A stretch of 64,000 nucleotides of DNA from a virus: the IMG/VR virus record IMGVR_UViG_3300035694_000088; one strand, 5' to 3'. Position 1 is the first letter of the stretch, and each line of letters starts with the position of its first letter. The position numbers were made by a program, and so were the translations under genes. Below are positions 7,807 through 30,780 of the stretch, piece after piece. The notes under the pieces were generated by a model, which worked only from the letters and a program-made list of their open reading frames with translations, had not been told where the DNA came from and did no database searches.

Positions 7807-7815
7807 GCGTCCAGG

Positions 7816-7888
7816 TTCCCCCGTCAGGACTCGAACCTGAATATGCGGAACCAAAATCCGCCGCGTTGCCGGATTACGCCACGGGGGA
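7816..7888 (-). tRNA. trnQ: tRNA-Gln (TTG)
   Basis: TCCCCCG/CGGGGGA acceptor stem, GCGGA-TTTTGGT-TCCGC anticodon arm, TCAGG-TTCGAGT-CCTGA T arm; followed by CCT, not CCA. Confidence 0.9.
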
Positions 7889-7889
7889 G

Positions 7890-7962
7890 CTCCCTCGCTA
7901 GGACTCGAACCTAGACACCCCGGCACCAGACGCCGGTGGGCTACCAATTGCCCCACGAGGGA
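7890..7962 (-). tRNA. trnQ: tRNA-Gln (CTG)
   Basis: TCCCTCG/CGAGGGA acceptor stem, CCGGC-GTCTGGT-GCCGG anticodon arm, CTAGG-TTCGAGT-CCTAG T arm; no CCA. Confidence 0.88.
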
Positions 7963-10526: not shown

Positions 10527-12296
10527 GTGGCACGTCGCCGTTTTCTCCCGGCCCTACGCCAAGCGCTGGCCGGGGGCTCGTCGGGTCAAGGTGACCTCGA
10601 TGCCCGGATCGTGTCTGGCCCGTCCGGGTACGTCGTCCCTGGACAGCCCTACCCGGTGGACTGGTCGGTGGCCCGCTCCGTTGAGGAGGGCTACTCGTGG
10701 AACCCGTATGTTTTCCGGTGCGTGGAGTTCGTCGCCGCCAATGAACGTGCCCGGCGCATGGTGCTGCGCGCTGATGACCCCGACACCGGGCCGATCATCG
10801 AACCTGATCAGCAGTCCCGGGAGCAACGCCGCATCCTGCGGGTATTGAATCGGCGCGCCAATGAGTGGGAGATCGCCCAAGTGTGGCGTCACCGCCTGAC
10901 CGCCCAGTTCATGCTCAGCTCACGCGGGGTGTTCGTTGAGGCGGTCCGGACCCGCTCTGGTGGTATCCACTCGGCGTATCTGCTGGACCCTGATCGGGTC
11001 CTGCCGGTACCGGGGCGCCGCAAAAAGGACCCCAACGACCCTAATGAGAAGGGCGTCGTCGTCCCCATCGAGTCGTTTCGGGTGACCACCGCTGTGGCCA
11101 ACGGTTCCCCGCACTACGACTGGCGGCCACCGTTTGATCCTGATGCCGACGCCGAGAGCCAACCGTCGGGCATCGTGTGGTTGCGTTCCCCGCACCCGAC
11201 GATGTTCGAGCGGGGCATGTCGCCGGTGGAGGCGGCCGGTCTCTCGGTGGACCTCGATCGGTACGCGCGGTTGTATAACCGCAGGTTCATGATGGAAGAC
11301 GGGCGACCGGGTGGGGTGCTCGCCGTCAAAGGTGACCTCGATCCGCAGTACGAGGAGGTGCTTCAGCAGCGCTTCCGGGGTGGCCCGGATGTCGCCAACT
11401 CCCGCACCACCGTCATCCAGGCCGACGACATGGCCTGGACCGACACGTCGGGCACTCCTCGTGACACTCAGTGGGGCGACACGATGGATCGGACGAAACG
11501 CGAGATCTGTGTCGCGTTCGGCCTGCCCGAATCGGTGGTGTCGGATTCATCGGGGGAAACCTTTGACAATGCTGACGCCGATTACGCCAAAGCGTGGGAA
11601 CACTGCATGCTCCCACTGTTTCGACTACTTGATGGACAATTGGATGTACTTTCTCCAGGCGGATATGATGACGATACATTTCTTAACCACGACGTATCCG
11701 ACGTGTGGGTGCTCGGTCGGCACAAGCGAGCCGAGGAGGATCGGGCCGCCGCCGACCTAGATCGGGGCACTATCACCATCGACGAGTACCGGGAGATCTG
11801 CGGGCGTGACCCGTGGGATGTGCCCGCTACGCGCGTGCTGTGGATTCCCGCCGCCCGACTGGTCGTCGACGACGGGGAGCGCGATCACGATGGGGACGCC
11901 CAGGCGGCCAGTACGGCGCCGATCGGCAATGGGCAGCTCGGTGCGGCCGGGATGTCTGGTGGCGCCCCGGGTGGGGCGGGTATTCCCAACGCGTTGCCTC
12001 CCGGGTTCGGGGTTGATCCTGATGCGGATCTCGACGGCGCGGGGCAGGGCACGGGCAGTGTCCCGATCCCTGGGGCGCCCGGGGTGGCGGTTCCAGGGAT
12101 CGCACCACCACCGCCCATGAAGATGCCCAGGCCGCACGCGGCGATCGGGGCCGGTGGGGCGCCGGGCGCCGGTTTCGGGCCGCCCAGTACCCGCATGGAG
12201 GCCCAAGCGGGTCGCACGGTGCCCGGTGGGGGTTTGACGCAGGTCAAAAGTGCGGAGGATGAGCAGAGCGGGGGGCGACCTCCTCGCAGCCGATGA
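10527..12296 (+). CDS. portal protein (HK97-like) with Gly/Pro-rich C-terminal extension
   Basis: EEGYSWNPYVFRCVEFVA, DGRPGGVLAVKG, D..WGDTMDRTKREICVAFGLP, TITIDEYRE..G.DP. Confidence 0.9.
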   Translation: MARRRFLPALRQALAGGSSGQGDLDARIVSGPSGYVVPGQPYPVDWSVARSVEEGYSWNPYVFRCVEFVAANERARRMVLRADDPDTGPIIEPDQQSREQRRILRVLNRRANEWEIAQVWRHRLTAQFMLSSRGVFVEAVRTRSGGIHSAYLLDPDRVLPVPGRRKKDPNDPNEKGVVVPIESFRVTTAVANGSPHYDWRPPFDPDADAESQPSGIVWLRSPHPTMFERGMSPVEAAGLSVDLDRYARLYNRRFMMEDGRPGGVLAVKGDLDPQYEEVLQQRFRGGPDVANSRTTVIQADDMAWTDTSGTPRDTQWGDTMDRTKREICVAFGLPESVVSDSSGETFDNADADYAKAWEHCMLPLFRLLDGQLDVLSPGGYDDDTFLNHDVSDVWVLGRHKRAEEDRAAADLDRGTITIDEYREICGRDPWDVPATRVLWIPAARLVVDDGERDHDGDAQAASTAPIGNGQLGAAGMSGGAPGGAGIPNALPPGFGVDPDADLDGAGQGTGSVPIPGAPGVAVPGIAPPPPMKMPRPHAAIGAGGAPGAGFGPPSTRMEAQAGRTVPGGGLTQVKSAEDEQSGGRPPRSR

Positions 12297-13632
12297 GCTG
12301 CCCGAGCTGCCCGTAGAGCAGATGATGGTGTTCGAGGCCCCACCGGATCCCCCGGTGGGTTCGGTTCGTGACGCGATGGCCGATGCGGGGTCGGTGCGGG
12401 TGGATCAGGCGATAGCCCTGATGGATGCGGCGATTACCGGCTACAACGAACGCCTCGCGGCGGTGGTGGAGGCCCGGATGCGGAGCCCGAAGACCCGCAA
12501 GGGCACTCGATTCTGGAATCCGTCACCTGATGGGGTGAAGTCTGGATTTATTCGAGGGGTAAGCGACTCTTCTACACATAAGACCCCCGTAGGGGTCGAG
12601 GTAAAAGCCATCGACGCGTCCTACGTGCTCCCCGAGCGCACCGTCGACGAGCTGGGCGACGTGGTCCGCCCCGTGTGCCTAAGGATCGTCGCCGACGCCA
12701 CCAGTAACGTCGCCAGATCCCTCAAGCGCCCCAACACCGGGCTCGCTGCGTTCGACTGGGCCGACATCAACGCCACCGTCGACGACGCCGTGAAGCGCCT
12801 GCTGGACGTCAACGAACGCCACGCTCGCGATGTCCGGGGCGAGATTCTGCGCGCCGATTCCGACGCTGGTTCCCTGTCCGCAGCGATCGACCGGGTCACC
12901 GAGGCCACCCGCAGGGGTGGCCGGTGGTTATTGCTGGCCGGGCGCACGCTGGCGACGGCGCTGACGGGGGATGCGGCACTGGCGGCGGCGAAGGCCTTGG
13001 GGGTCACTCATGTGCAGTGGTTAACCCGTCGGGATGACCGGGTGCGCGAGACTCACCGGGTGGCCGATGGTCAGGTCCGGCCGGTGGGAGCTAAGTTCGC
13101 CGTCGGCGGGTTCGGGCTGCGGTTCCCGGCCGACCCCGAGGTGCTGCCGGAGGGCGGCCCGGAGGTCTACGGGTGCCGCTGTTCACTGCTGTTCGCGCCC
13201 CCGTCCCCGCTGCGCGCTAAGGCGGTCGCGTTGGCGCAGCGGGGCACTGAGGTTTCGGCGCGGAGGCTGGTCGATGTCGCGGACAGAGCTACCGGAGCCG
13301 ATCTGGTGCTCGGTGCGCCAGATCTCGGTGCGGGTATGTCCGTGCCTGCCGTGCCAGTGCCCCGCGATGTTGTTGGCTATCGCGTCCTTGGGGCGCAGGG
13401 CCCGGTCGCGCCGGGTCAGCAGGTCTCGTGGCCGGGGCCGCTCGCGTTAGCGTTGGCGCCCCCGGTGGCGGCGGGGTTGGCGGTGTTGGCGGTGGCGATC
13501 TCAGCGGGAACGGTTGTCGGGGTGGCTAACGGGGCGGTGGTGCTGCCGTCGGGGGTGCCGTTGGCGGTGGCGTCGGTCAGTGGTGGGCAGGTGGTGGCCA
13601 CGCCGGTCGTGTCGCCGGTCGCGGTCGTCTGA
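12259..13632 (+). CDS. MuF/SPP1 gp7-like head morphogenesis protein with degenerate C-terminal domain
   Basis: WLTRRDDRVRETH..ADGQ, FPADP, YGCRC; GGAGG RBS before ATG 12259. Confidence 0.85.
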   Translation: MSRAGGDLLAADELPELPVEQMMVFEAPPDPPVGSVRDAMADAGSVRVDQAIALMDAAITGYNERLAAVVEARMRSPKTRKGTRFWNPSPDGVKSGFIRGVSDSSTHKTPVGVEVKAIDASYVLPERTVDELGDVVRPVCLRIVADATSNVARSLKRPNTGLAAFDWADINATVDDAVKRLLDVNERHARDVRGEILRADSDAGSLSAAIDRVTEATRRGGRWLLLAGRTLATALTGDAALAAAKALGVTHVQWLTRRDDRVRETHRVADGQVRPVGAKFAVGGFGLRFPADPEVLPEGGPEVYGCRCSLLFAPPSPLRAKAVALAQRGTEVSARRLVDVADRATGADLVLGAPDLGAGMSVPAVPVPRDVVGYRVLGAQGPVAPGQQVSWPGPLALALAPPVAAGLAVLAVAISAGTVVGVANGAVVLPSGVPLAVASVSGGQVVATPVVSPVAVV

Positions 13633-16536: not shown

Positions 16537-16926
16537 ATGCGTCGCGTGCAGCCCGCCGCGCAGTCCCCCACGCAATGTGCGCCGGGGTGCGGCGCTTGCT
16601 GCGACCCGGTCGCCATGCCCGTGCCACCAGATCGCATGAACGGCCCGTCGGGTCCGTTCGCCCGCCAGCACTGGCACGTGATCAGCGTGGTCGAGGACGA
16701 CCGGTCACCCACCGGGCGGGTGTACTCCCTACGCTGCGACCAGTTCGACCCGCACACCCGACGGTGCGGTGCCTACGCGGTCCGGCCGCCGATCTGCGCG
16801 AACTATCCCGCTTACGGGCACCCGCTGTCACCGTGCCACCCGAAGGCCGACGCGATTCCCCTCGTGTGCGCCTTCCAGGCTGACGTGCGCACCGTCCTGC
16901 CCCTGGTGGCGATCAATGGCCGATAA
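16537..16926 (+). CDS. YkgJ/UPF0153-like Cys-cluster (Zn/Fe-S) protein; start uncertain
   Basis: C...CGACC, C..FD..TRRC.AY..RP.IC..YP. Confidence 0.75.
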   Translation: MRRVQPAAQSPTQCAPGCGACCDPVAMPVPPDRMNGPSGPFARQHWHVISVVEDDRSPTGRVYSLRCDQFDPHTRRCGAYAVRPPICANYPAYGHPLSPCHPKADAIPLVCAFQADVRTVLPLVAINGR

Positions 16927-18760
16927 CCCCGATGTTGTCGCCACCCCCGCCACGCCCCCCACCGATGACCCGCAAACCGGGGGGATGCTCGCCCTGATCC
17001 CCGACAACGTCGAGCAGCTCGCCGTCGAGGGTGGCCTGCCCGCCAGTGAGCTCCACCTGACGTTGATCTACCTGGGGGATGACGTCAGCACCTGGGCGCC
17101 GGGACAGGCCGATCACCTCAAGGCGCTCGTGACGGCCAGCGGGCCGGGTTTGGATCCGGTGAACGCCCGGATCATGGGCCACGCCCTGTTCAATCCCGAC
17201 GGCGGTGCTGACGGGGACAAATCCCCGTGCGTGGTCTACCTGGTGTCCGACACGCCCGACCTCGAACCGTTGCACAAATGGGCCACCTGGACGGCGACCA
17301 CGGGACAGGATTACCCGACCCCGCCACCGCAGCACCAGCCGTTCATCCCGCATATCACGGCCGGGCAGGACATCGGACCCGATGAACTGTCCTACACCGG
17401 GCCGGTGCGGTTCTCGACATTGCGGTTGGCGCTGGGTGGCGACGTGACTGATGTGCCGTTGGGCGAGCAGGAGGACACCGTGGCCGGTCCGCAGATCAAG
17501 GGCATCACTTTCACCCCACCGAAAGAGGTTCGCGACGCAGCGTGGGATTTAGACGGCCCAATGGCCTGTGATGTGGTCGAGGGCAAGGCCCTGGACCCGG
17601 ACGGTTTGGTGTGGGTTGCGGCGCACTGCGGTGACGTCGGCCGGGAGTGGGCCCGGGACATGCTCGGTCGGGTCGAGGTCAAGACCGACATGAACATGGG
17701 CCGTGTCGTCGGCGGTGACCGGCCGAAACTGGAGTCTCTGAAAGACCTCGATGACGCGATCGGGGCGCATCACGAGCTGCCCGCCCAGGAGCGCGCGGAG
17801 AACGTCAAACGCCTCAAGGCGTCCGCGCACCGCCTGGGCGCGGATCATCACGTGCACGAGCGGATCGGCAGTCTGGAGACCGCCACGACCGACGGGTCCG
17901 GGCGCAAGGATGACGCTGACGGCGTCGAGTACAAGACGTGGGCGCCGGGCAATTCGACACCGCCGCTGTTGCCGCATCTGGCCGCGCTGGATCAGGCGAT
18001 CGCCGCGCACCACAAGGTGCGTCCGGAGGCGCGGGGTAAGCACAAGCACCATCTGAAGGTTGAGGCGCACCGTTTGGGTGCGTCGGGCAGTGTGCACGCC
18101 CGGATCGACACTCTGGAGCCGCATTCTTTCCATCCGGCACTGAAATCCGGTACTGATGGTGTCGAGTTCAAGGTCACCTCACCGGGGCCGGGCGCGACCC
18201 GCTTGCGGGAGTATTGGGCGCGCAATCCGAAAGGCCGGGCGAAGTGGCGTCCGGGCAGCGGCGGGGATTTCAACCGGCTGCGCCGCCATTTGGCGAAGTA
18301 CGTGCACAACCCGAAGATCCTTAACGGTTTGGCCGCGAACATTCACAAGATGGCCACCGGTGAGTGGCCCGGTAAGAATGCGCACACCATTCGAGCGAAG
18401 CCCGGCAAGCCGCTCACCTACGGGATTAAGTCCGTCGTGGCGTGGGAGTCGGTCGAGCAGAAGGACGCCCTCACCGAGCCGGACATGGCGGAGCTGTTCG
18501 CCGGGGTCGACGACTGGGGGCGTGAGTTCATCAGCGATGAGGCCGACGCCTACCTCGCGGCACTGGCCGAAGCCCAGGGCGAGCTCCCTGACGAGGGGGA
18601 GCCCGGGGACGTTGAGCGGACCGCCGCGCTGGCCGCGTTGGGCGCGAAACTGGTCGCTGACCCTGCCATGGGGGGGTCCGGGGACACCTCGGACGCTGCG
18701 GGAACCGACGCGGGGGACAGTTTGTTCGGCAGTACCGGGGTATCAGGGGTCGGGGAGTGA
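16916..18760 (+). CDS. multidomain head-associated protein: 2H phosphoesterase, two helical repeats, YW..GD..TGEWPG domain
   Basis: HLTL (17054) and HITA (17351) 2H motifs; lies between MuF and protease. Confidence 0.75.
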   Translation: MADNPDVVATPATPPTDDPQTGGMLALIPDNVEQLAVEGGLPASELHLTLIYLGDDVSTWAPGQADHLKALVTASGPGLDPVNARIMGHALFNPDGGADGDKSPCVVYLVSDTPDLEPLHKWATWTATTGQDYPTPPPQHQPFIPHITAGQDIGPDELSYTGPVRFSTLRLALGGDVTDVPLGEQEDTVAGPQIKGITFTPPKEVRDAAWDLDGPMACDVVEGKALDPDGLVWVAAHCGDVGREWARDMLGRVEVKTDMNMGRVVGGDRPKLESLKDLDDAIGAHHELPAQERAENVKRLKASAHRLGADHHVHERIGSLETATTDGSGRKDDADGVEYKTWAPGNSTPPLLPHLAALDQAIAAHHKVRPEARGKHKHHLKVEAHRLGASGSVHARIDTLEPHSFHPALKSGTDGVEFKVTSPGPGATRLREYWARNPKGRAKWRPGSGGDFNRLRRHLAKYVHNPKILNGLAANIHKMATGEWPGKNAHTIRAKPGKPLTYGIKSVVAWESVEQKDALTEPDMAELFAGVDDWGREFISDEADAYLAALAEAQGELPDEGEPGDVERTAALAALGAKLVADPAMGGSGDTSDAAGTDAGDSLFGSTGVSGVGE

Positions 18761-21700
18761 CCGCCACTCTCGGCGATATTGACACCCCGGAGGACATGAG
18801 TCCCCTGGAGTGGAAGTCCCTGCCGGGCGGGGAGATGACCTCCCCACTGACCGGGGTGATCGGTCACGACGACGCCGACGGCACGATCACCGCTTTGGTC
18901 GCGGTGTCTGGGGTGGTCGATGAGGTCGGTGACGTCATCGTGCCCGGCTCCCTGGAGGCGGCGATCAAGCGGCTTAAGCCTAAGGGGGTGATGTCGCACA
19001 ATTGGGGCGAGAAGGTTTCTAAGCTGGTGTGGTCGAAAGAGTTGATGCCGGGCGACCCGATGCTGCCCAAACAAACCCCCGACGGGCAGCCGTGGCCCGC
19101 CAACGCGGGCGGTCTGCTGATCAAGGCCCGGTACAATCTCGATAAGCAATCCGGGCGGGACGCGTACGCGGACGCGAAGTTCTACGGCCCGGAGGAGTGC
19201 TTTTCGATCGGCTATAAGGTTCGCCCCGGTGGCGCCCGGATGCGCAACGGGAAACGGTACCTGCACGATTTCGATCTATACGAATGGTCGCAGGTGCTTC
19301 ACGGGGCGCACCGTCTGGCGACCCTGACGGGGGTGAAATCCCTCGCCGACACCATCGAAGCCCCGTGGTACGATGGCACCCGTTCCGGTGACATCGAGGG
19401 GGATACCGCTCTGCCTGCTGACGTGGAAACCAAGGTTCGTGTTGTCCGCGACGCGGACTTCTGGCACCTGCCCGTCGGCACCCCCATCAAGCCCGGCATG
19501 GTCCCCCACGGACTGAACAGGCCACCCACCGCGCAAGAACTGCACTCCACCACCGCCGAAACCGGTGACGACGCCGGAGTCCACGGCGCCCCCGACGACG
19601 TCGCCACCCCCGGCATGCCCGGTGCCCCCGTTGGCCTGGGCGCCCCACCCATGCCCGACATGGCACTGCCCACCCCCGGGCCGAAAGACGGCGACGTACC
19701 CACCGGTGACCCCGAGGCGGCCGTCGAAGCGCTACGCAAACGCGTCGGAGAGATTCAGAAGCTCAACACTCCGGCCGCCCGCACCGCAGCCGCCGCCCTG
19801 ACCCCATTCCTGGTCCCCGGCGCGCCCGTGCGGGCATCAGCCGACGGGCAGCTCGTCGCCGTGCACACCGGTGACGCCTGGCGCTTCGCCGACACCGCCA
19901 ACGGTGGTGTCATGCAGGCCACCCTGCCCGGCACCCTGCCCCAACCCAACGTTGATGTCGTACTCCACGACCTGTCCCAGGTCGGTATCCCCTGGGATTC
20001 CGTGGAGGCCCGTCGCAAGCGCTGGTCCGATAACCCCGCCCAGCTCCAAGCCGACAAGACCGCTGTAGCGGGCATTTTCGCCAGGGGCGGCCTACCGCCG
20101 ACCACAACACCAGCCGGGGTCGGTGGCGCGGGAATGGGCGCCCCGCCACCCCCCGGCGTCCCCGCGCCACCGCAAGCGCCGAATGCGCCACCCGGTGCAC
20201 CCCCCAACGTCCCCGGTGCACCGCCCAACGCCCCAGGGCTCCCCGTCGGGGCACCGTCGGGTTACGCCCAACCCCCGGCCGTGCCCCCGGTACCGCCGCA
20301 AGCCGCCCCTGCCGTCACCCCCCCTCCGGCAGGGGCACCCCCCGTTTCGCCGAAAACGTTCCCGCGCGGCTCCCTGAAGGGCCACGGGGTGCAGCTCGGT
20401 GACCGGATCCGCGTCCACGGGCACCCCAAAGGCACTCTGGAAGGCACCGTCGAAACCGGCAAGACTGGGCACCATCTTGTGCACGACGACGGCACTAAAA
20501 CGTGGATCGGTGGGGCCGGGTCGCGCCACCACGTGGAGAAGCTCGGCAAGGCCGCCGACCAGCCGCCCAGGCCGCAGCCCGCCCCGGAGCCCGACAAGCC
20601 CGCCGCGCCCGCCGCGCCCGCCGCGCCGGAGCCGTATCAGGCCACCGGCAACATCAACGCCCCGCACAAGCTCACCGACGAACAACTGGCCACCGAATCC
20701 GCCCACGCCGCCGCCCGCTACGCCCGCGCCCGCGCCAACGGGGCACCGAAGACCTCCGTCGAGCATCACGACGCGAAACTGGGTCACACCGTCTTTCAGG
20801 ACGAGATCCGGCGCCGGGCCACCGGCGGGGAACACACCCCCGACGCGCCCCCGACACCGGGGACACCTCCCGCGCCGGATCTGAAACCAGTCTCGGACAT
20901 GACCCTGGAGGAGCTCCGCACCGAACGGCGCGGTCTGCTCAGCAATCACCGCACCCCTGCGGAGACGGCTCGCCTGCGCGAGATCCGCGACGAGATGACC
21001 CGCAAGGAAGACGCCGCCTGGCAAGAGGAGATGGCGACCGGTCGCGCCCATAAGAAGCTCGCTAATGCCGACGGCCCGGAGCTCCTGAAGGCCCTCTCTG
21101 AGGCATCCGACGAAGACCTAGCGAAGACCGCAGCCACTTGGAGCAAGAGCGACTCCAAGCGGGCTCGCCTCGTCAAGGGAGAGATCGCCCGACGGGCGGC
21201 TGCCGGTCAGGCCGCCGCGCCGGACAAGCCCGGAGAGGTCCCCGAGGGCAGTAAGCCCGCCGACACGATCCGAGTGCCCCCCGAGCTCGCTGACGGTGCA
21301 CACAAGGTTCGGGCGGACGCGCTGGGCATCATCGACGGCCCCGACGGGCAAGAGGAACTGACCCCCGAGGTCGCCGACCGGCAAGACCGCGTCCAAGCGC
21401 ACCTGGCGGCCGGGGAAACCGCCCTGGCCGACAAAACCGACGACGAGCTCCCCACGATCCGCAAGGATCTGACCGACGAGCTGGCGCTACAGAACGAACT
21501 GGCCCGGCGTGACATCGAGCGTCGTAAAGAGGTCGCCGCCGCGAAGGCCGGGGCGCCTTCCGAGTCGGCGGCCAACGCCCCGGCCGGGGCGGAAGATACC
21601 GGCCCGAAGCTGCGCCCCGGTGTCGCGGGGGCCGCCGAAGACCTCGGCGACGCCCTGAACGCCAAACCCCGTGACGACGCGACGGTGCACGCCGCCGCCG

Positions 21701-24700
21701 AACGGTTCGCGAAGATGCTGCGCCGTCACGGGGACTCGAAGTCCTTTGACGCGGTCCGGGCCGCTGCCGGTGACGACATCCACGCCGCCATCGCTTCTGG
21801 TGAGCTGCGTGCGGGGATGCTGTTCACCGCCGCCGGGGGTGTGCGTGAGGAGCGGCGCCTGGCCCGCAATGAGGGCGCTAAGAAGCGCCGTCTGGCTAAG
21901 CGCCTGGACCGGGACCGGATCAAGGCCCTCATCGGTGCGGTGGACACCGAGATCAGGTCGCGTAAGGATCGCAAGCGCGGCGCGGTGGAAACCAAACCTT
22001 CGGCGGTTCCGGTTGCGAGCACCACCGCGCCGTCCAAGCCGCGCGCCGCCGCCGAGGCCGCCATCCGTGACGGGGACCGGATCGCCCTGGTCGATGCCCT
22101 GCGGGAGATGGGTGACCCGGGTCCGCGTGAGACCGCGATGCGTCTGCGGGAACTGCCCGAGGATGAGGCGGTCGCCGGGCTCGCTGATGTCGGCAAACCG
22201 GCCAGCGTACCGGAGCCCGCCCCCCACCGAGGGCAGGTTCGCCGCGACGAACGCGACGCCCGTCTCGCCGCCGACGACAACCGCGTCGGCCGCGCCCAGG
22301 AGCACATGCGTCAGGCTCGCGCCGCCGCCGACGACGGCGACTTCGAGGGTGCATTCGCCCACCTTGATAAGGCGCAGGAACTGAACCCGGAGCGTCAAAA
22401 GCTGTGGGATAAGGCACGCGGGATCATCACCGAGCAGCGGGACCGCGCTAAGGGTGCACAATCGCCTGAAACGGAAGGCGGTGACCATGAACGCCCTAGC
22501 GGACCAGATCGAGGCGTGGTACCAGAAGTACCAACCGGAGGTCTACGACGGGATCAAGGACAAACCGGCGTTCTTTCGGGAACTGACCGGCCGGGCGAAC
22601 GAACAGATCGCCCAGTTGACCGACGCGCTGGCGGGACCGGACCAGCCAGGGGAGACCTACGCCCACAAACTGGGGCGCCTGAACATGGCGCAAGCGCAGG
22701 CGACGGAGAAGGTGACACGCGAGTTCGCGATGTGCCCACCGCCCCCCAACTGGAAAGACAGTCCGGCGCCGAGCCCGGAGACACCGGACCCGAGCATCCT
22801 CCCGGACGAGACGCCGGAGGACCGCAAGTTCCGGACGGCGATGGAGGACTTCGCGACAGCGAGCAGCGAACTGGACGACCAGCGCCGGAACACGAGACTG
22901 AAGACACTGCCGGTCCTGCCACCCCGGGGCAAGACACCGGCACCCCCGACCGGGAAGTAACCGCCGAGGACCAGCCCGGCGCGGACGCTTCGCAGGTCGA
23001 TGCGATCCCCGACACCGGGGAGTCGTTTCGCCCCACGGGTGAAGCCCTGGCCCCTGCGGGTAAGAAGGCGAAACTGGCGGCGAACCTCGCCGCCCTGCGG
23101 GTGCTGCGGGAGCTCCAGACCGAGAAGCGCTCCGCCACCCCGGCCGAACAGACCGTGCTGTCCCGGTGGGCCGGGTGGGGTGGCCTGCCTGAGGTGTTCG
23201 ACGATCGGAAAACCGAGTATGCGAAGGAGCGCGAGGAGCTACGTGGACTGCTGTCGCCCGCTGAATGGAACGAGGGCCGCCGCAACACCCTCAACGCTCA
23301 TTACACCGACCCCCGTGTTGTGCAATCAGTGTGGAAGGCGGTGGAGGATCTCGGGTTCGACGGCGGCCGTGTGCTTGAGCCCGGCTCCGGTTCCGGCACG
23401 TTCATCGGATTCGCCCCACCTGGGGCGGACATGGTCGGGGTCGAGCTGGACTCCACGACCGCTGCGATCTCTCGTGCCCTCTACCCGCACGCGACGATCC
23501 GCAATGAGTCTTTCGCCAAAACTCGCCTGCCAGCGGGGTCATTCGACGCGACGGTAGGCAACGTCCCGTTCGGGCAGTTCAGTCTGACCGACCGGGTGCA
23601 CAACCCCGGCCAGAAGATGTCGATCCACAACCATTTCATTGTCAAGTCGCTGGCGATGACCAAGCCCGGTGGTGTGGTCGCCCTGTTGACGTCGCGTTAC
23701 ACGCTGGACGCGCAGTCACCCCGGGACCGCAAGCGCATGGCGGAGATGGGGGATCTGATCGGGGCGGTGCGCCTGCCCACGGGGTCGCACTCGAAGACCT
23801 CCGGTACTGACGTCATCGAAGATGTGTTGATCTTTCGGCGTCGGGAGCCGGGCGCGGCCCCCCTGACCCCACAAGACTGGATCAACTCCAGTGAGCACGA
23901 CATCGACGGTCACCAGATCACCGTCAACGACTACTTCACCGCCCACCCCGACAACGTCCTCGGCGAGCTCCACGCCGAACCCGGCCAGTACGGCACCGGC
24001 AGCCTGATCGTCAAGGGCGACAGGGACATGCCGGGGCTCGCCGCCGCCCTCGACCGCATCACCGAGCAGGCCAAAGCCGACGGGGCCACCGCCACACCCC
24101 GTATGACCGACCTGCACGCCCTGGTCGACGCCGACACCGCCCGCCACGAAGGCCACATCGCCGCCCATGACGACGGCACCTTCACCCAAGCCGCCCAAGG
24201 CACCGCCGTCCCCTTCGACGTGCCCGACAAGCAAGCCGAGGAACTGCGCGGCCTGATCGGCATGCGCGACACCCTGACGTCGCTACTGACCGCTGAAGCC
24301 GCATCAGTGTCCGACTCGCCCCAAATCAAGGCACTGCGCGCCGACCTCAACGACCAGTACGACGCCTACGTCAAACGCTACGGGCCGATCAACCGCTACA
24401 CCCTGACCAAAACCGGGGCCCGCAACGCCCCCGGGCAAGGCGGGTTCCGGCGCGATCCCATGTCGGCGATCGTCCGCGCGTTGGAGGTCTACAACCCCGA
24501 GACCGGCAAGGCCGTCAAGACCGACATCTTCACCAAACGGGCCAGCTCCCCGCGTGAGATCCCCACCCACGCCGACTCACCCGCCGACGCGCTCGCCCTG
24601 TGCCTGGACACCTACGGGGAAGTCAACCTCCTCGAGATCGCCAAAATGCTCGGCGTCGGTGAGACCGCCGCCCGCCATCAGCTCGGCGACCTCGTTTTCG

Positions 24701-27700
24701 AGCAACCGCCCCTGACCGATGCCGAGCACACCGCCGCATGGACCGCCATGCGCGAAGACCACGGCGGCCTGGCCGACGAGAACGTTCCCGCCGACCGCAT
24801 CGACCTGTCCAGCGTTGGCGAATCGGTGCGCGCTGAAGGCGCCCTCGAACCTGCCGCCGCCTACCTGTCCGGCAACGTGCGCCGCAAACTGGCCGCCGCG
24901 AAGGCCGCCGCCGCCCACGATGACCGGTTCGCGCCCAACGTCGCCGCCCTGGAGAAGGTCATCCCCACCGACCTGGGGGTCGATGAGGTCGACGGGCGCC
25001 TGGGTGCGGCGTGGATCCCCGCCGACGACGTCAAGGCGTTCATGGTCGACCTGCTCCATGACGGCAACGACCGCTACAACTCCGTGCAGGTCGCCACCTC
25101 CGGTGGCGGGATCTGGACCGTCAAGGGCGGTGACCACGGGAACAAGGCCACCGAGCAGTGGGGCACCAGCCGCAAATCCGCTGGTGAGCTTATCGCCGCC
25201 ATGCTGGAACAAAAACCGATCCGGGTCACCGACACCATTGACGGGAAGTCCTACCCGAACCTTGAGGAGACCCTGGCAGCGCAGGCGAAAGCCGACGAGC
25301 TACAGGAACGGTTCTCCGAGTGGCTGTTCGAGGACTCCGATCGCACCAAGCGTCTCCTGCGGTCCTACAACGACCAGTTCAATGCGATCCGGTTGCGGTC
25401 CTACGACGACATGCCCCGAGTGTTCCCCGGTATGGCCGACCGGTTCGTACCCAGGGATCATCAGGTTTCGGCCGTCAACCGGATCGTTTCCGAGCCCACC
25501 GCTTTGCTGGCGCACGTCGTCGGGGCGGGCAAGACTGCTGAAATGGCCATGGGCGCCGCCGAGCTCAGACGCCTGGGGATGGCTAAGAAGCCCGCGATCG
25601 TGGTCCCTTCGCACATGCTGGAGCAGTTCACCCGCGAATATCTCCAGATCTATCCCAACGCGAAGATCCTGGCCGCTGGGACCGATGATCTGGGCGGGGA
25701 CAAGCGTCGGGAGTTCGTGGCGCGCGCCGCCACCGGGCAATGGGATTGCGTCATCCTGACAAAAGATGCGATGCAGCTCATTCCCATGTCGCCCGAGGCG
25801 ACAGAGGCATACATTGCTCGCGAAATGGCCACCATGCGCGCCCAACTGGAAGCCGCCCAGGCCGAAGGCGGGGACGCCGCCCAGCAGGCGACAGTAAAGA
25901 AAATGGAGAAGGCCGTCATCAGCGCCGAGGAGGCGCTGCGGGCGAAACTGGAGAAGACGAAAGACGCGGGGGTGTCTTTCGAGCAGACCGGCATCGACTA
26001 CCTGTTCGTCGACGAGGCACACCAGTACTCGAACCTGCGCACCGTGTCCAACATTCAGGGCGCCGGGGCGACCGGGTCGGGTATCGCCACCGACCTGCAC
26101 ATGAAGATCGAGCACCTGCGGGCGAACAACGCATCAGGGCGGGTGGCGACGTTCGCCACCGGCACCCCGATCCGCAACACCGTGACGCAGGCGTACATCA
26201 TGCAACGGTTCCTGCGGCCCGACCTGCTCAAAGAGGCCGGGATCAACTCGTTCGACCAGTGGGCCGCGACGTTCGGGCAGACCGTCGACGAGATGGAACT
26301 GAAGCCCGAGGGCACAGGTTTCCGCCAGACCACCCGGTTCGCGAAGTTCCGCAACGTCCCCGAACTGCTGCGACTGTTTCAGATCTTCGCCGACGTCAAG
26401 ACCGCTGAAGACCTCAACCTGCCCACCCCGAAACTGGAGGGTGGGGAGGTTGACAACGTCGTCGTACCGTCCACTGATGAGCTCAAGGCCACCATGGCGG
26501 AGCTCGCGCAGCGCGCCGACGACTACCGCAACGGCAAGCCGCAGAAGCGAGAAAACGCCGCTGGTACCGGCGAGGTCGAAGACATGATGCTGCTGATCAG
26601 CATGGACGGGCGTAAGGCCGCCATGCGGCAGTCGGACAAGCTGGACATAGCGGCCGACAAAATGTTCGCGATCTGGGAGAAGACCAAAAACAAGCCGGTA
26701 CCTAAAGACCTCGACGATCCCACTGCCGGGGATGACCCGCCACCCGGTGGGCTACAGATCGTGTTCTCCGACATGTTCACCCCCGGTGGCACCGGCGCTG
26801 ACGATTTCAACGCTTATGAGGCGCTGCGGCAGAAGCTGGCCGACCGGGGAATGGACCCGACCACGATCAGGTTCATGCACGACGCGAAAAACGACCGACA
26901 GAAGGCGGAACTGTTCGCCGCCGCCCGCAACGGTCAAGTCTCCGTCCTCATCGGGTCCACAGAGAAAATGGGTGTCGGCACTAACGTGCAACGCCGCGCT
27001 GTGGCCCTGCATCACCTCGACGCCCCGTGGCGCCCGTCGGACCTCGAACAGCGCGACGGCCGGATCATGCGCCAGGGCAACGCCAACGACACCATTTCGA
27101 TCCACCGGTACGTCACCGAAGGCTCATTCGACGCCTACATGTGGCAAACCCTGGAACGCAAAAAGAAGTTCATCGACCAGATCATGCGCGGCACCCTGGA
27201 TCAGCGCGAGATCGAAGACGTCGGCGAGACCGCCCTGTCCTACGCCGAAGTCAAAGCGCTGGCCACCGGCAACCCCCTGCTGTTGCACAAGGCCACCGTC
27301 GACACCACGATCGGCAAACTGTCCCGCCTGGAACGCACCCACAATCGCACCCAAACCAACCTGCGGCGCGACGTCACCAACTACCGGGCCAAAGCCGAAG
27401 CCGACGACGAGCACGCCACCCACCTCACCCGCGCGATCACCAAACGCACCGACACCACCACCGGTGACAACTTCGCGATGACCGTCCACGGCACCACCAC
27501 CCACGATCGGGGTGAGGCCGCCGCGATGCTCAAGGCGAGCATCGAAGACGTGGTTCGCAACAACTACTACAGCAACAAACCCAAGCCGGTCGCCGAGTTC
27601 GGTGGCCACCGGCTGATGGCCGCCGTGGACACCTACTACGACCGTTCCGGGGCCCGGCGTTCCGGGGTGACCCTGACGTGGGATGGGATCCCCGACCACA

Positions 27701-29181
27701 AGGCCGCGACTCTGGGTCACACCCAAATGGCCAGCATCGGTCAAGGCACGCTGGCCACCCTGCACAACTCTCTGCACTCCCTGGAATCCCGCAGGGACCG
27801 GGCCGTCGCCCGCGCCGAGCACCTGCGTGACGAGGCCGCCGTGATGGAACAACGCGTCGGCGTGGAGTTCCCGCACGCGCAAGCCCTCAAGGAAGCACGG
27901 GCGGAGTCCGCGCGCCTGAGTGCCGCCATGACCAAAGCGGGCATGTCGGCCACCGGCGAGTCCGGTGACTCCGAAGCGACCAAAGCGCTCGCCACGGCCC
28001 GGACGAAGGCCGCCACCCAGGCCACGCGCATGGGCCGCTCCGGTGGCACCGCAGCGGCCACCCTGAAACGGTTCGGCAACTCCACCGCATCCCCCGGCGC
28101 GGTCGCCTCACCCAGTGGCGCGATCGGCGCGTTCGGGCGTGACCACGATGCGCACGTGTTCCTCACCGACGACGGCACCGACCTGCGGGATCTGGCCGGG
28201 ATCAGCTCAACGACCATGCCCGGTGTCATCGACAACAATCAGGCCCTGGTCGATGACCTGGACAAGCTGGATCTGCCCCTGGCCGAGGGCGTTCACGCCC
28301 TGTACCGGCGCTGGAACGACTACACCTATGAGGCCCCGGACTACTCGAAGCCCTACGAGGAGCGGGAGCGCATCGCCCAGGCGAAACGGGACAAGGTCAA
28401 GGCCGTGGAGGCGGGGGACAAGGCCGCGATCCGGGCGGTGTTCGCCCGGCACATGGTGGCCGACACGACCCCGGCGAAGACCGGGGTGGAGCTGGCGAAG
28501 GTCAACGCCGCGCGGGCCGCCACGGGCACCCGCATCGGGGATCTGGCCAAGAAGCGGTTGCAGCGGTTCGCGAAGGCCAGCAAACGCATCGAGCACTACT
28601 CATCGGATGACGGCACGATAGCGGCGGTGGCCGACACCAGCGGGAACCTGGAGTACTTCCCGACCGGTAACGGCAGGCCGCTCAACGACCCATCGTTGGA
28701 GCGGCCGATCGCCGACCCGCAGGCCGTGGTCAACGACCTGGCCGCCCTGAACATCCCCCTGGGCGACAACGACGCCCTGCGGGAACGGTGGGGCAAGGGC
28801 GACGGGCAGCAGCAAAAGGACTTAGAGGCGATCAAGGCGGTCTATCGTCGCCACATGGAGCCCGAGGAGAAGGCCCTGATCAGTCCCATGGACCTGCTGA
28901 GGGCGCACCGTATCGGTGTTGAGGTCAAACTGCGCGCCGATACGGGGGCTAAGCCCGCACCGGACGCCGGAGACGCCGGGCTGGAGCCGTTCACCACGAT
29001 CGTCGCTGATGACGTGCGCTACACCATGGACGCGTCCGGGGTGCTTCAGCGGCTCGTCGACTGCCCGGAGTGCGGGGCGCAGATGACCGTCCCGGCCTAC
29101 GGGGGGTCGGTCGCCCCACCGTGCCCCGCGTGCGGTGCGGTGCCCCAGGGTGTCGACTCGCGCCGGGCGCCGGTGGGCTGA
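18757..29181 (+). CDS. prohead protease (HK97/S78) fused to DarB-like N6-methyltransferase and SF2 helicase
   Basis: Protease SHN/FSIGY; MTase VLEPGSGSG and GNVPFG; helicase HVVGAGKT, VDEAH, TGTPIRN, WRPSDLEQRDGRIMRQGN; C-terminal CPEC..CPAC. Confidence 0.85.
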   Translation: MTATLGDIDTPEDMSPLEWKSLPGGEMTSPLTGVIGHDDADGTITALVAVSGVVDEVGDVIVPGSLEAAIKRLKPKGVMSHNWGEKVSKLVWSKELMPGDPMLPKQTPDGQPWPANAGGLLIKARYNLDKQSGRDAYADAKFYGPEECFSIGYKVRPGGARMRNGKRYLHDFDLYEWSQVLHGAHRLATLTGVKSLADTIEAPWYDGTRSGDIEGDTALPADVETKVRVVRDADFWHLPVGTPIKPGMVPHGLNRPPTAQELHSTTAETGDDAGVHGAPDDVATPGMPGAPVGLGAPPMPDMALPTPGPKDGDVPTGDPEAAVEALRKRVGEIQKLNTPAARTAAAALTPFLVPGAPVRASADGQLVAVHTGDAWRFADTANGGVMQATLPGTLPQPNVDVVLHDLSQVGIPWDSVEARRKRWSDNPAQLQADKTAVAGIFARGGLPPTTTPAGVGGAGMGAPPPPGVPAPPQAPNAPPGAPPNVPGAPPNAPGLPVGAPSGYAQPPAVPPVPPQAAPAVTPPPAGAPPVSPKTFPRGSLKGHGVQLGDRIRVHGHPKGTLEGTVETGKTGHHLVHDDGTKTWIGGAGSRHHVEKLGKAADQPPRPQPAPEPDKPAAPAAPAAPEPYQATGNINAPHKLTDEQLATESAHAAARYARARANGAPKTSVEHHDAKLGHTVFQDEIRRRATGGEHTPDAPPTPGTPPAPDLKPVSDMTLEELRTERRGLLSNHRTPAETARLREIRDEMTRKEDAAWQEEMATGRAHKKLANADGPELLKALSEASDEDLAKTAATWSKSDSKRARLVKGEIARRAAAGQAAAPDKPGEVPEGSKPADTIRVPPELADGAHKVRADALGIIDGPDGQEELTPEVADRQDRVQAHLAAGETALADKTDDELPTIRKDLTDELALQNELARRDIERRKEVAAAKAGAPSESAANAPAGAEDTGPKLRPGVAGAAEDLGDALNAKPRDDATVHAAAERFAKMLRRHGDSKSFDAVRAAAGDDIHAAIASGELRAGMLFTAAGGVREERRLARNEGAKKRRLAKRLDRDRIKALIGAVDTEIRSRKDRKRGAVETKPSAVPVASTTAPSKPRAAAEAAIRDGDRIALVDALREMGDPGPRETAMRLRELPEDEAVAGLADVGKPASVPEPAPHRGQVRRDERDARLAADDNRVGRAQEHMRQARAAADDGDFEGAFAHLDKAQELNPERQKLWDKARGIITEQRDRAKGAQSPETEGGDHERPSGPDRGVVPEVPTGGLRRDQGQTGVLSGTDRPGERTDRPVDRRAGGTGPARGDLRPQTGAPEHGASAGDGEGDTRVRDVPTAPQLERQSGAEPGDTGPEHPPGRDAGGPQVPDGDGGLRDSEQRTGRPAPEHETEDTAGPATPGQDTGTPDREVTAEDQPGADASQVDAIPDTGESFRPTGEALAPAGKKAKLAANLAALRVLRELQTEKRSATPAEQTVLSRWAGWGGLPEVFDDRKTEYAKEREELRGLLSPAEWNEGRRNTLNAHYTDPRVVQSVWKAVEDLGFDGGRVLEPGSGSGTFIGFAPPGADMVGVELDSTTAAISRALYPHATIRNESFAKTRLPAGSFDATVGNVPFGQFSLTDRVHNPGQKMSIHNHFIVKSLAMTKPGGVVALLTSRYTLDAQSPRDRKRMAEMGDLIGAVRLPTGSHSKTSGTDVIEDVLIFRRREPGAAPLTPQDWINSSEHDIDGHQITVNDYFTAHPDNVLGELHAEPGQYGTGSLIVKGDRDMPGLAAALDRITEQAKADGATATPRMTDLHALVDADTARHEGHIAAHDDGTFTQAAQGTAVPFDVPDKQAEELRGLIGMRDTLTSLLTAEAASVSDSPQIKALRADLNDQYDAYVKRYGPINRYTLTKTGARNAPGQGGFRRDPMSAIVRALEVYNPETGKAVKTDIFTKRASSPREIPTHADSPADALALCLDTYGEVNLLEIAKMLGVGETAARHQLGDLVFEQPPLTDAEHTAAWTAMREDHGGLADENVPADRIDLSSVGESVRAEGALEPAAAYLSGNVRRKLAAAKAAAAHDDRFAPNVAALEKVIPTDLGVDEVDGRLGAAWIPADDVKAFMVDLLHDGNDRYNSVQVATSGGGIWTVKGGDHGNKATEQWGTSRKSAGELIAAMLEQKPIRVTDTIDGKSYPNLEETLAAQAKADELQERFSEWLFEDSDRTKRLLRSYNDQFNAIRLRSYDDMPRVFPGMADRFVPRDHQVSAVNRIVSEPTALLAHVVGAGKTAEMAMGAAELRRLGMAKKPAIVVPSHMLEQFTREYLQIYPNAKILAAGTDDLGGDKRREFVARAATGQWDCVILTKDAMQLIPMSPEATEAYIAREMATMRAQLEAAQAEGGDAAQQATVKKMEKAVISAEEALRAKLEKTKDAGVSFEQTGIDYLFVDEAHQYSNLRTVSNIQGAGATGSGIATDLHMKIEHLRANNASGRVATFATGTPIRNTVTQAYIMQRFLRPDLLKEAGINSFDQWAATFGQTVDEMELKPEGTGFRQTTRFAKFRNVPELLRLFQIFADVKTAEDLNLPTPKLEGGEVDNVVVPSTDELKATMAELAQRADDYRNGKPQKRENAAGTGEVEDMMLLISMDGRKAAMRQSDKLDIAADKMFAIWEKTKNKPVPKDLDDPTAGDDPPPGGLQIVFSDMFTPGGTGADDFNAYEALRQKLADRGMDPTTIRFMHDAKNDRQKAELFAAARNGQVSVLIGSTEKMGVGTNVQRRAVALHHLDAPWRPSDLEQRDGRIMRQGNANDTISIHRYVTEGSFDAYMWQTLERKKKFIDQIMRGTLDQREIEDVGETALSYAEVKALATGNPLLLHKATVDTTIGKLSRLERTHNRTQTNLRRDVTNYRAKAEADDEHATHLTRAITKRTDTTTGDNFAMTVHGTTTHDRGEAAAMLKASIEDVVRNNYYSNKPKPVAEFGGHRLMAAVDTYYDRSGARRSGVTLTWDGIPDHKAATLGHTQMASIGQGTLATLHNSLHSLESRRDRAVARAEHLRDEAAVMEQRVGVEFPHAQALKEARAESARLSAAMTKAGMSATGESGDSEATKALATARTKAATQATRMGRSGGTAAATLKRFGNSTASPGAVASPSGAIGAFGRDHDAHVFLTDDGTDLRDLAGISSTTMPGVIDNNQALVDDLDKLDLPLAEGVHALYRRWNDYTYEAPDYSKPYEERERIAQAKRDKVKAVEAGDKAAIRAVFARHMVADTTPAKTGVELAKVNAARAATGTRIGDLAKKRLQRFAKASKRIEHYSSDDGTIAAVADTSGNLEYFPTGNGRPLNDPSLERPIADPQAVVNDLAALNIPLGDNDALRERWGKGDGQQQKDLEAIKAVYRRHMEPEEKALISPMDLLRAHRIGVEVKLRADTGAKPAPDAGDAGLEPFTTIVADDVRYTMDASGVLQRLVDCPECGAQMTVPAYGGSVAPPCPACGAVPQGVDSRRAPVG
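22487..22960 (+). CDS. nested TnpV-like ORF in an alternate frame of the giant gene
   Basis: AAGGCGGTG RBS, high GC3 in this frame, FF.EL...IAQL..ALAGPD.PGE.Y..KLGRLN.A...A.E.V motif. Confidence 0.6.
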   Translation: MNALADQIEAWYQKYQPEVYDGIKDKPAFFRELTGRANEQIAQLTDALAGPDQPGETYAHKLGRLNMAQAQATEKVTREFAMCPPPPNWKDSPAPSPETPDPSILPDETPEDRKFRTAMEDFATASSELDDQRRNTRLKTLPVLPPRGKTPAPPTGK

Positions 29182-29430: not shown

Positions 29431-30780
29431 GTGACCGCACCTACCCTCGACCGCCACGACAAGGATCTGATCAGTCGCGGTCGAGCTGAAGTCAAAACCC
29501 TGAACACCAAACTTGATGAGATCACCAAATCCGGGTGGCTCGATTCCGACGGCAACATGCACGTCGAGCCCGGTGCGCTGGCCGAGTTCAAAGACACCCT
29601 GGCCAAGGCTGAGGAGGCGCACGGTATCGTCGCCGCGCTGGAGCGCAAGGGTGCTCTGGATGCGTGGCTCGATGCCCCCGCAACCGATTCCCCCGCCGCG
29701 CTGGTAGCTGGCGGCGGCAACATGGTCCGCCAGGCCGAGTACAAGTCGCTGGGTCAGCGGTTCGTGGAGTCGACCGAGTTCAAGGGTCACCGTGATTCCG
29801 GGTTCATGGATTCCGCTTTCGTGGTGGAAGACCAGGAGATCACCTACGGGGCGCAGTTCAAGGATGTGCACTCCGGGTCGATCGGGGTTGTGACTCACCC
29901 CGGTTTCGGCACGGTGCAGCGGGCACCGATGGTGCAGGCCCCCATGCTCACGTGGCGGGTCCGGGACTTGTTCCCGCAGATGAACACCAACTCCGTGATG
30001 ATCGAATACATTGAGGAGCTTGGGTTCGTCGACGCGGGCGACAACGCCGCCGCGATGATCCCCGAGCGTGACGGGGTCGCGCCACCTAACGACAACTTCG
30101 GTCTGAAGCCGAAGTCACAGATCCACTTCAACATCAAGACCACGCCGATCCGGACGCTGGCGCACTGGGTTCCGGCATCACGCAACGTGCTTGATGACGA
30201 GCCGCAGTTGCGGGGGATCATCGACACCCGCCTGCTGTACGGCCTGCGTCTGGTCGAGGACCAGCAGTTGCTGCTGGGTGACGGCACGGGACAGAACCTG
30301 CTCGGCATTTTCAACACGCCGGGTATTCAATTGTTCCCCTCCGGCGGGTATCACGCACCCACCAATGAGACCTATGTTGACGCCATTCGCCGTGGCGCCA
30401 CGCGGGTCATGCTCGCCCAGTACGACCCCACCGGCGTTGTCGTGCACCCTTACGACTGGGAGCGCATGGAATTGACCAAGGACACCCAGGGCCGCTATCT
30501 GGTCGCGGGGTCGGTCACTTCCGGTGCGGAGAAGCGGCTGTGGCAGATGCCGGTTGTGGCCACCCCGGCGTGCCCCGAAGGCACCGCGCTGATCGGCGCG
30601 TTCGGTTTGGGCGCGCAGGTCTTCGACCGGATGCAGTCCAATATCCGGACCGCTGACCAGCACGCGGACTTCTTCGTCCGTAACGCGATCGTGGTCCTGG
30701 CTGAGGAGCGGCTCGGTTTGGCCGTCTACCGTCCGGCCGCCATGGTCAAGGTCAACCTGTCCGCCGCGATCACTCCGTAG
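29431..30780 (+). CDS. major capsid protein, HK97 fold, with N-terminal delta domain
   Basis: RTLAHWVPASRNVLDDEPQLRGIIDTRLLYGLRLVEDQQLLLGDGTGQNLLGI; AEERLGLAVYRPAA. Confidence 0.95.
   Translation: MTAPTLDRHDKDLISRGRAEVKTLNTKLDEITKSGWLDSDGNMHVEPGALAEFKDTLAKAEEAHGIVAALERKGALDAWLDAPATDSPAALVAGGGNMVRQAEYKSLGQRFVESTEFKGHRDSGFMDSAFVVEDQEITYGAQFKDVHSGSIGVVTHPGFGTVQRAPMVQAPMLTWRVRDLFPQMNTNSVMIEYIEELGFVDAGDNAAAMIPERDGVAPPNDNFGLKPKSQIHFNIKTTPIRTLAHWVPASRNVLDDEPQLRGIIDTRLLYGLRLVEDQQLLLGDGTGQNLLGIFNTPGIQLFPSGGYHAPTNETYVDAIRRGATRVMLAQYDPTGVVVHPYDWERMELTKDTQGRYLVAGSVTSGAEKRLWQMPVVATPACPEGTALIGAFGLGAQVFDRMQSNIRTADQHADFFVRNAIVVLAEERLGLAVYRPAAMVKVNLSAAITP

Follow-up and report, generated by a model that had tools for sequence, protein, structure and literature searches.

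In a 64,000-nucleotide (nt) stretch of the virus record IMGVR_UViG_3300035694_000088, an uncultured actinobacterial phage (hereafter the window, part of a contig of about 115 kb), a single open reading frame (ORF) of 3,474 codons joins a capsid maturation protease to a methyltransferase-helicase module homologous to DarB of phage P1. This giant ORF (P0001) begins with a GTG and occupies positions 18757-29181 of the plus strand, directly upstream of the major capsid protein gene. We consider it reasonably probable that a capsid-maturation protease gene has here been enlarged into one for a carrier-plus-cargo polyvalent protein, the cargo of which is packaged, injected and active against restriction. 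Taken separately, packaging of the protein in the head appears likely, and for anti-restriction as the role of the cargo we see an even chance. An earlier sequence-only reading of this DNA had described the fusion as one frame and proposed that the protease guarantees packaging and that maturation cleavage frees the DarB module; the frame is indeed a single ORF, with all the motifs listed at that time in place. The comparative evidence presented below fits the same logic, as the protease is orthologous and in the same slot, the fusion is recurrent, the frame is selected and E-x-K sites flank the domains.

Results and Discussion

At its N-terminus the giant ORF encodes the orthologue of phage capsid maturation proteases, and the gene occupies the slot usual for them. 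Amino acids (aa) 13-200 were assigned to PHROG 80, 'head maturation protease', with an E of 6.8e-15. The N-terminal domain shows 46-52% identity to its counterparts in Gordonia phage Hanem (454 aa) and Brevibacterium phage Cantare (417 aa), both annotated as capsid maturation proteases. In the window, in six relatives and in three cultured phages, Hanem, Cantare and Gilgamesh, where a homologous protease takes that slot, the gene immediately precedes the one for the PF05065 capsid protein. H81 and S150, located in the SHN (aa 80, nt 18994) and FSIGY (aa 149, nt 19201) motifs, are together with E176 invariant across 26 aligned sequences, annotated phage proteases included, and represent, by analogy, candidate catalytic residues. 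The AF2 model, generated with an alignment of 23 relatives, reaches a pLDDT >90 for aa 40-195. Its top 26 Foldseek matches are all herpesvirus proteases (probability up to 0.99), and VIA-align recovered 28 assemblin entries at Z 9.7-5.1, the next unrelated chain following at Z 3.4. Among the head-module ORFs scanned in the window no second protease was detected.

As cargo the giant ORF carries all elements of an LPD36-methylase-SF2 helicase module, which is homologous to P1 DarB. The region of aa ~1430-3170 matches PHROG 10089, 'DarB-like antirestriction', with 1307 bits, and BLAST aligns P1 DarB to the giant ORF in three collinear blocks of 26-38% identity, corresponding to the methylase (E 1.5e-23; P1 DarB aa 69-274 on giant aa 1493-1695) and to the N-lobe (E 1.2e-19) and C-lobe (E 5.5e-16) of the helicase (P1 DarB aa 784-1224 and 1474-1562). 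Methylase motifs I and IV (VLEPGSGSG, aa 1539, nt 23371, and NVPF, aa 1602, nt 23560) and helicase motifs I and II (GAGKT, aa 2256, and DEAH, aa 2419) are intact, and the Pfam cut-offs are exceeded by ResIII, with 29.9 bits, as well as by Helicase_C, with 25.7 bits. An LPD36 domain has been described upstream of the methylase of the DarB dyad (Iyer et al. 2017, PMC5512222), and GWGG, read from the translation at aa 1473-1476, fits the GxGU motif of LPD36 as defined there. The nearest copies of the module in cultured phages are at most 36% identical, none of them in an actinophage. A 4,624-aa protein encoded beside the protease of Gilgamesh, gp48, was considered as a stand-alone DarB and discarded, its C-terminal 3,544 aa having no BLAST similarity to P0001.

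We then collected giant relatives by a length-restricted search with the protease domain, which returned 37 proteins of 1,925-5,848 aa. These are 39-89% identical to P0001 in the protease domain, which is N-terminal in 37/37, and they often stem from contigs of 100-135 kb. Approximately 20 giants possess DarB domains, the other 19 being 41-89% identical to P0001 in the protease domain. Eight carry a Zeta-toxin/AAA_33 cargo instead, the kinase being C-terminal in P0029 (L004:10001-17761) and in its relatives P0031-P0034, P0037 and P0038, while the cargo of the rest is unrecognised by Pfam and PHROGs; a PHROG scan of four such giants yielded essentially nothing. An exhaustive search recovered 1,620 clusters (at 50% identity) with the protease domain, and among the best 150 of these about 35 further ones begin with the protease and extend beyond 1,400 aa. 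Relatives P0022-P0027 come with precomputed matches to PF04586. Protease and DarB in one ORF, a combination that the sequence-only reading had proposed to search for, occur in about 20 metagenomic relatives. None of 50,697 phage records contains the fusion.

The order portal, MuF-like protein, 2H-like protein, giant protease and PF05065 capsid protein holds in six independent contigs representing three cargo types, in which the giant gene sits between the 2H-like (or a syntenic) gene and the capsid gene. On the protease-domain tree at least three changes are needed to account for the DarB label, and hence the relatives exchange cargo on the same protease carrier. A small example already exists in culture: Gilgamesh gp52 (Streptomyces phage, MN234216; L003:11947-13872), a protein of 641 aa annotated as 'hydrolase' and encoded directly upstream of the capsid gene, combines an S78 protease (38.1 bits, over the cut-off) with a NUDIX domain (59 bits), and is an unrecognised case of protease plus cargo.

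The exchange of cargo bears on what the DarB-like part does. The protein may be packaged as proposed and the cargo still serve another purpose than defeating type I restriction, such as methylating or remodelling the incoming genome, stripping nucleoid proteins, aiding ejection, or acting as an inner-body, scaffold or head-size factor in the manner of P1 DarA/Hdf. As relatives have Zeta-toxin kinases or unrecognised cargo at this position, the carrier is not dedicated to anti-restriction; the identity to P1 DarB is low and limited to three blocks; and aa 250-1430 (>1,200 residues) and the repeats R1-R3 have no known function. The module nevertheless retains the full LPD36-methyltransferase-SF2 architecture of the DarB dyad with its motifs intact, and the one function for which this dyad has been tested is anti-restriction (PMC5512222, PMC9024508). 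We hold such other roles to be unlikely.

Next, the continuity of the reading frame was assessed. Codon-position GC of the giant ORF is typical of coding sequence except at aa 1200-1400, where third-position GC falls to 0.47-0.55 as compared to 0.81-0.86 in the +1 frame, and the same inversion of the frame plot is seen in four relatives. A nested +1-frame ORF of 157 codons lies here (22487-22960, plus strand), with an ATG at 22487 and the Shine-Dalgarno sequence GGAAGG 8 nt upstream, and its protein, of about 116-157 aa, is conserved in all five sequences (the window and the four relatives). Substitutions between relatives at giant codon positions 1/2/3 number 34/22/18 in this stretch, the highest count falling on the nested frame's wobble position, versus 15/12/75 in the methylase, where it falls on that of the giant frame. 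As both composition and substitutions follow the +1 frame, the DNA has been shaped by the nested gene, the giant frame being merely open and reading as a G/D/E/R/P/T-rich linker (aa 1244-1401). Composition and substitution pattern show the nested frame to be the one under purifying selection. The sequence-only reading had counted this part among the long linkers; it is a dual-coding region rather than an ordinary linker, and the nested gene had escaped notice.

Such a pattern might also arise if two or three genes (a protease-scaffold gene, the +1-frame gene and DarB) had been joined by a chance frame or by an assembly or indel error at about 22.3-23.0 kb, the third-position GC and the substitutions both speaking for this. 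Yet the giant frame is stop-free in the window and in four independently sequenced relatives, and in simulations synonymous recoding of the nested gene kept it free of stops in only 4-15% of trials per sequence. That it is open in 5/5 sequences indicates that selection keeps the giant frame open over the nested gene. Moreover, about 20 divergent metagenomic relatives are called as single proteins of 3,000-5,800 aa with protease and DarB; P0023 and P0036 fuse the two without any dual-coding stretch, their DarB dyad being placed before module 2 (see below), not after; and no credible start is available to the DarB module itself, none of its in-frame starts being preceded by a Shine-Dalgarno sequence. 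The possibility of an assembly error, raised with the original proposal, is hence answered by comparison, and we regard an artefact as very improbable.

The likeliest history is rather that the fusion reads through a once-intervening gene. The nested gene is probably co-expressed and may assist the DarB module. Its protein belongs to an orphan family without match in Pfam, NCBIfam, the Atlas or the phage database, for which the search returned only the four relatives, all on contigs <1.5 kb; a 'TnpV-like' label is accordingly unsupported by any of these resources. A relation to P1 Ulx was likewise rejected, there being no similarity between the two; of the P1 accessory proteins Ulx is the only one that was compared, the other Dar proteins not having been searched for.

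Two elements accompany the protease in the giants. The first is a post-protease motif (aa 227-252) that reads VRDxxFW.LPxGTPIxxGM.P.G here and VRDxxYWGxPxGTPIxxGMKPRG in the family consensus, with V230, W236, P239 and G241 invariant among the giant relatives. Neither the short Hanem and Cantare proteases nor Gilgamesh gp52 have it, and library-search alignments of the giants extend to about aa 252, while those of most short proteins end at about 195-225. The motif thus marks the giant forms. The second, module 2, is present in 36/37 giant relatives as judged by a BLAST map; its alignment (A3) contains 29 invariant columns, and the AF2 model (pLDDT ~90) is all-helical and Arg-rich. A role as scaffold or capsid-binding part is possible. 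A fold search of the PDB gave no match for module 2 better than E 0.3, and neither for it nor for the post-protease motif was a Pfam family or solved fold found. An equivalence of module 2 to the C-terminal half found in short proteases was rejected (hhalign probability 0.2%).

We subsequently inspected putative cleavage sites (a slash marks the cut). In the capsid protein, AEYK/SLG (K105/S106, nt 29734-29748, with AEYK/S at capsid aa 102-106) is the predicted maturation site; among ten related capsid proteins E103, K105 and S106 are found in at least 90%, and L107 and G108 in all. HK97 gp5 reads NK/SLGS at its known K103/S104 maturation site, which aligns with K105/S106. Similar sequences border the protease domain. 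On its N-terminal side, in LEWK/SL (aa 17-22), neither E18 nor K20 varies among 23 giant relatives, and the K/SL context resembles the capsid site; on the other side VETK (aa 223-226) has an invariant K226 and E224 in at least 90%. Towards the C-terminus, VEVK (aa 3388-3391) precedes the conserved four-Cys tail, and in 10/16 other relatives that share this tail of the DarB lineage a phi-E-x-K lies 27-114 aa from the C-terminus. Five of the Zeta-cargo proteins (not P0033 and P0038) have I-E-x-K about 250-275 aa from the C-terminus; in P0029, the only protein with that domain mapped, some 55 aa separate this site from the Zeta domain downstream. Across 38 proteins E-x-K motifs number 149, versus 68 expected. 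The sharing of E-x-K by the capsid site, both protease borders and the C-terminal domains suggests a cleavage code.

These findings allow a mechanism to be proposed. HK97-type proteases co-assemble with the capsid protein and, as a rule, gain activity only once this has happened. Perhaps with the help of module 2, the protease domain would co-assemble with the capsid protein in the procapsid and thereby pull a polypeptide of roughly 380 kDa inside. Once active, the protease would cut after the Lys of E-x-K, in the capsid protein at K105/S106 and in its own chain at K20, K226 and K3391. Small pieces would exit the shell, while the DarB-like fragment (~345 kDa if no further cuts are made) would be too big to leave and would stay, to be ejected with the DNA and to protect it from restriction in the next host, like P1 DarB. 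With the cargo tied to the only head protease, loading would proceed without accessory proteins and be guaranteed in every particle.

The conserved cleavage-like site right after the protease domain would also part the two halves in a late polyprotein that is not encapsidated whole, the protease freeing itself, be it at the procapsid or in the cytoplasm, and the DarB-like enzyme acting in the producing cell, for example by methylating progeny DNA before or during packaging; the site does not indicate the timing of the cut. Against this stand the general dependence of HK97-type proteases on co-assembly for activity, the location of the gene in the head module between the portal and capsid genes in all relatives, a Zeta-toxin cargo that makes more sense in the next host than in the producer, and the fact that P1 DarB is a virion protein. 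Such a scheme is in our view quite improbable.

Several points count against the main reading, that of a packaged and injected anti-restriction cargo. Packaging, cleavage and anti-restriction are all inferred from sequence, and no cultured phage carries the exact protease-DarB fusion. The match of the domain in the window to PF04586 (Peptidase_S78; 18.5 bits, E 0.0023) is below the gathering cut-off of 21, and a second protease outside the 64 kb that were read is possible. Module 2, the possible capsid-binding part, has no recognisable relative. Three of the seven E-x-K sites fall inside the helicase fold, where MELK and LERK are conserved as parts of the domain, and these are probably not cut; another candidate, VETK at aa 1077, was rejected as a conserved cleavage site, being present only in P0001. 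Finally, dozens of 380-kDa chains per procapsid would represent a heavy load, and far fewer copies may be present than of ordinary proteases. A precedent in favour of packaging is P1, in which ~40 copies of the 250-kDa DarB fit in a head of similar genome size (PMC9024508).

The giant ORF is embedded in a head module with the order portal, MuF-like protein, DUF932 protein, 2H/RNA-ligase-like protein of 663 aa, giant ORF and PF05065 capsid protein, followed by a TIG-domain protein and then sheath and tape measure, which together form a virion module of the myovirus type (Table 1). The stop of the 663-aa protein overlaps the GTG of the giant ORF by 4 nt, an overlap kept in relatives, and the two are translationally coupled. 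This upstream protein contains five phi-E-x-K sites versus 0.4 expected, and is probably another packaged, processed protein. The MuF-like gene (12250-13632, plus strand) overlaps the end of the portal gene; its product matches Phage_Mu_F with 24 bits (below the cut-off) as well as head-morphogenesis PHROGs, and has one VEVK motif at aa 116. Within the giant ORF, R1 resembles R3 with E 2.4e-6 and R2 resembles R1 with E 0.007; a sequence similar to these repeats also ends P0014. As for the terminal zinc ribbon of the sequence-only reading, a conserved four-Cys motif (CxxC...CxxC) is present, whereas all Pfam zinc-ribbon matches are sub-threshold. The C-terminal tail is conserved in P0001-P0013 and P0015-P0017, with the Cys pairs in most and a terminal '..VG' in 15/16. 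Elsewhere in the window, two adjoining tRNA-Gln genes with anticodons TTG and CTG are located at 7814-7962 on the minus strand.

Table 1. Coordinates of the giant ORF, its parts and the adjoining head genes in the window.
Feature	Position	Strand	Basis or remark
Upstream 663-aa 2H/RNA-ligase-like head-module protein	16769-18760	+	PHROGs 2659 and 18402
Giant ORF P0001	18757-29181	+	Protease carrier plus DarB-like cargo; one open frame
N-terminal 20 aa ending LEWK	18757-18816	+	Predicted propeptide, cut at K20/S21
Assemblin/HK97-type prohead serine protease domain, aa 21-200	18817-19356	+	PHROG 80, homology, AF2 fold
VETK site (aa 223-226) and post-protease motif (aa 227-252)	19423-19512	+	Alignment conservation
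Repeat R1, aa 360-443	19834-20085	+	~85-aa domain, no known function
Module 2, aa ~830-1075	21244-21981	+	Arg-rich, all-helical; BLAST map, AF2
Dual-coding stretch, giant aa 1244-1401	22487-22960	+	Nested 157-codon +1-frame ORF
LPD36-like helical domain (GWGG) and N6-adenine methyltransferase	23044-23856	+	P1 DarB match, PHROGs 11801 and 10089
SF2/SNF2-type helicase (GAGKT at 25522, DEAH at 26011, Helicase_C at aa 2698-2774)	25294-27246	+	Pfam, P1 DarB
Repeats R2 (aa 3135-3235) and R3 (aa 3282-3367)	28159-28857 (R2, 28159-28461; R3, 28600-28857)	+	~85 aa each; with R1, bracket the cargo
VEVK site, aa 3388-3391	28918-28929	+	Precedes C-terminal domain
Four-Cys zinc-ribbon-like motif, aa 3436-3460	29062-29136	+	Conserved C-terminal tail
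HK97-fold major capsid protein	29431-30780	+	PF05065, 138.5 bits

How does this arrangement relate to known systems? With P1 DarB it shares the dyad of LPD36-N6A methylase and SF2 helicase, with three blocks in collinear order, and the nature of a large head-associated enzyme, the gene of which in P1 is placed beside the portal and protease genes. P1 DarB is however a separate protein that depends for targeting on the first 30 residues of its own chain and requires accessory Dar proteins, the loading system comprising Hdf, DarA, DdrA, DdrB and Ulx (PMC9024508), whereas the dyad here is the C-terminal half of a protease polypeptide and lacks a free N-terminus. An anti-restriction protein is loaded into the prohead in T4 as well, where IPI* is trimmed by the prohead protease and injected (mentioned in PMC9024508), although there the proteins are small and separate and bear a short peptide tag that is removed, with no fusion to the protease.

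Polyvalent proteins combine several effector and processing domains, are encoded among head genes and are predicted to be packaged and delivered, and the methyltransferase-helicase-LPD36 module is among their commonest parts (Iyer et al. 2017, PMC5512222). Assemblin-like peptidases were described in the same study as rare components of limited distribution, 'always' C-terminal and predicted to process proteins during assembly. The statement of the sequence-only reading that no case had been described was thus too strong, as both such peptidases and DarB-dyad cargo were known from polyvalent proteins, with the peptidase C-terminal. The giant ORF conforms to the polyvalent pattern in that protease, methyltransferase, helicase and further conserved modules form one ORF inside a head module. 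It differs in that the protease is N-terminal (aa 21-200 of 3,474), likewise in >60 related clusters, and is the phage's own maturation protease in the canonical slot, accompanied by the post-protease motif and module 2. Our literature searches turned up no report in which a maturation protease at the N-terminus carries DarB or any other enzyme. What is new here is hence the variant with an N-terminal protease as carrier, the general idea of polyvalent proteins having been published already.

Protease-scaffold fusions of head genes are represented by P2 gpO and lambda C/Nu3. In actinophages, MuF-protease, protease-capsid and protease-scaffold-capsid fusions occur as well (PMC7302621). In these the prohead protease is covalently joined to a component of the head interior, with co-assembly and then self-cleavage, similar to the arrangement proposed here, but the partners are structural (scaffold, MuF or capsid), in contrast to a multi-enzyme cargo ten times the size of the protease. 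Gilgamesh gp52 comes closer in that its N-terminal protease, 40% identical to that of P0001, is joined to an enzyme cargo and its gene immediately precedes the capsid gene, yet it is small, with one cargo domain and without the post-protease motif.

Conclusions

Aggregated, the data permit a broader proposal, which we put forward tentatively and hold to be possible rather than probable: a clade of ~100-135-kb actinobacterial phages may use its prohead protease as an exchangeable loading device. The carrier would consist of the protease, the post-protease motif and module 2, and the cargo (DarB dyad, Zeta-toxin kinase, Nudix or unrecognised domains) would be freed in the head by an E-x-K/ code common to them and the capsid protein, the fusion in the DarB lineage having come about by read-through of a small gene that persists as the conserved nested +1-frame gene and may encode a DarB helper. 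The dual-coding stretch itself is a clean natural example of a gene fusion reading through another gene. If the main reading is correct, a very large counter-defence enzyme would be guaranteed in every capsid by joining it to an enzyme that each prohead must have, and the multi-protein loading system needed by P1 would become dispensable. The picture of polyvalent proteins would be extended by an N-terminal protease carrier that accepts different cargos and comes with a testable cleavage motif, with Gilgamesh gp52 providing a cultured handle for experiments, and the design could serve to load foreign proteins into capsids.

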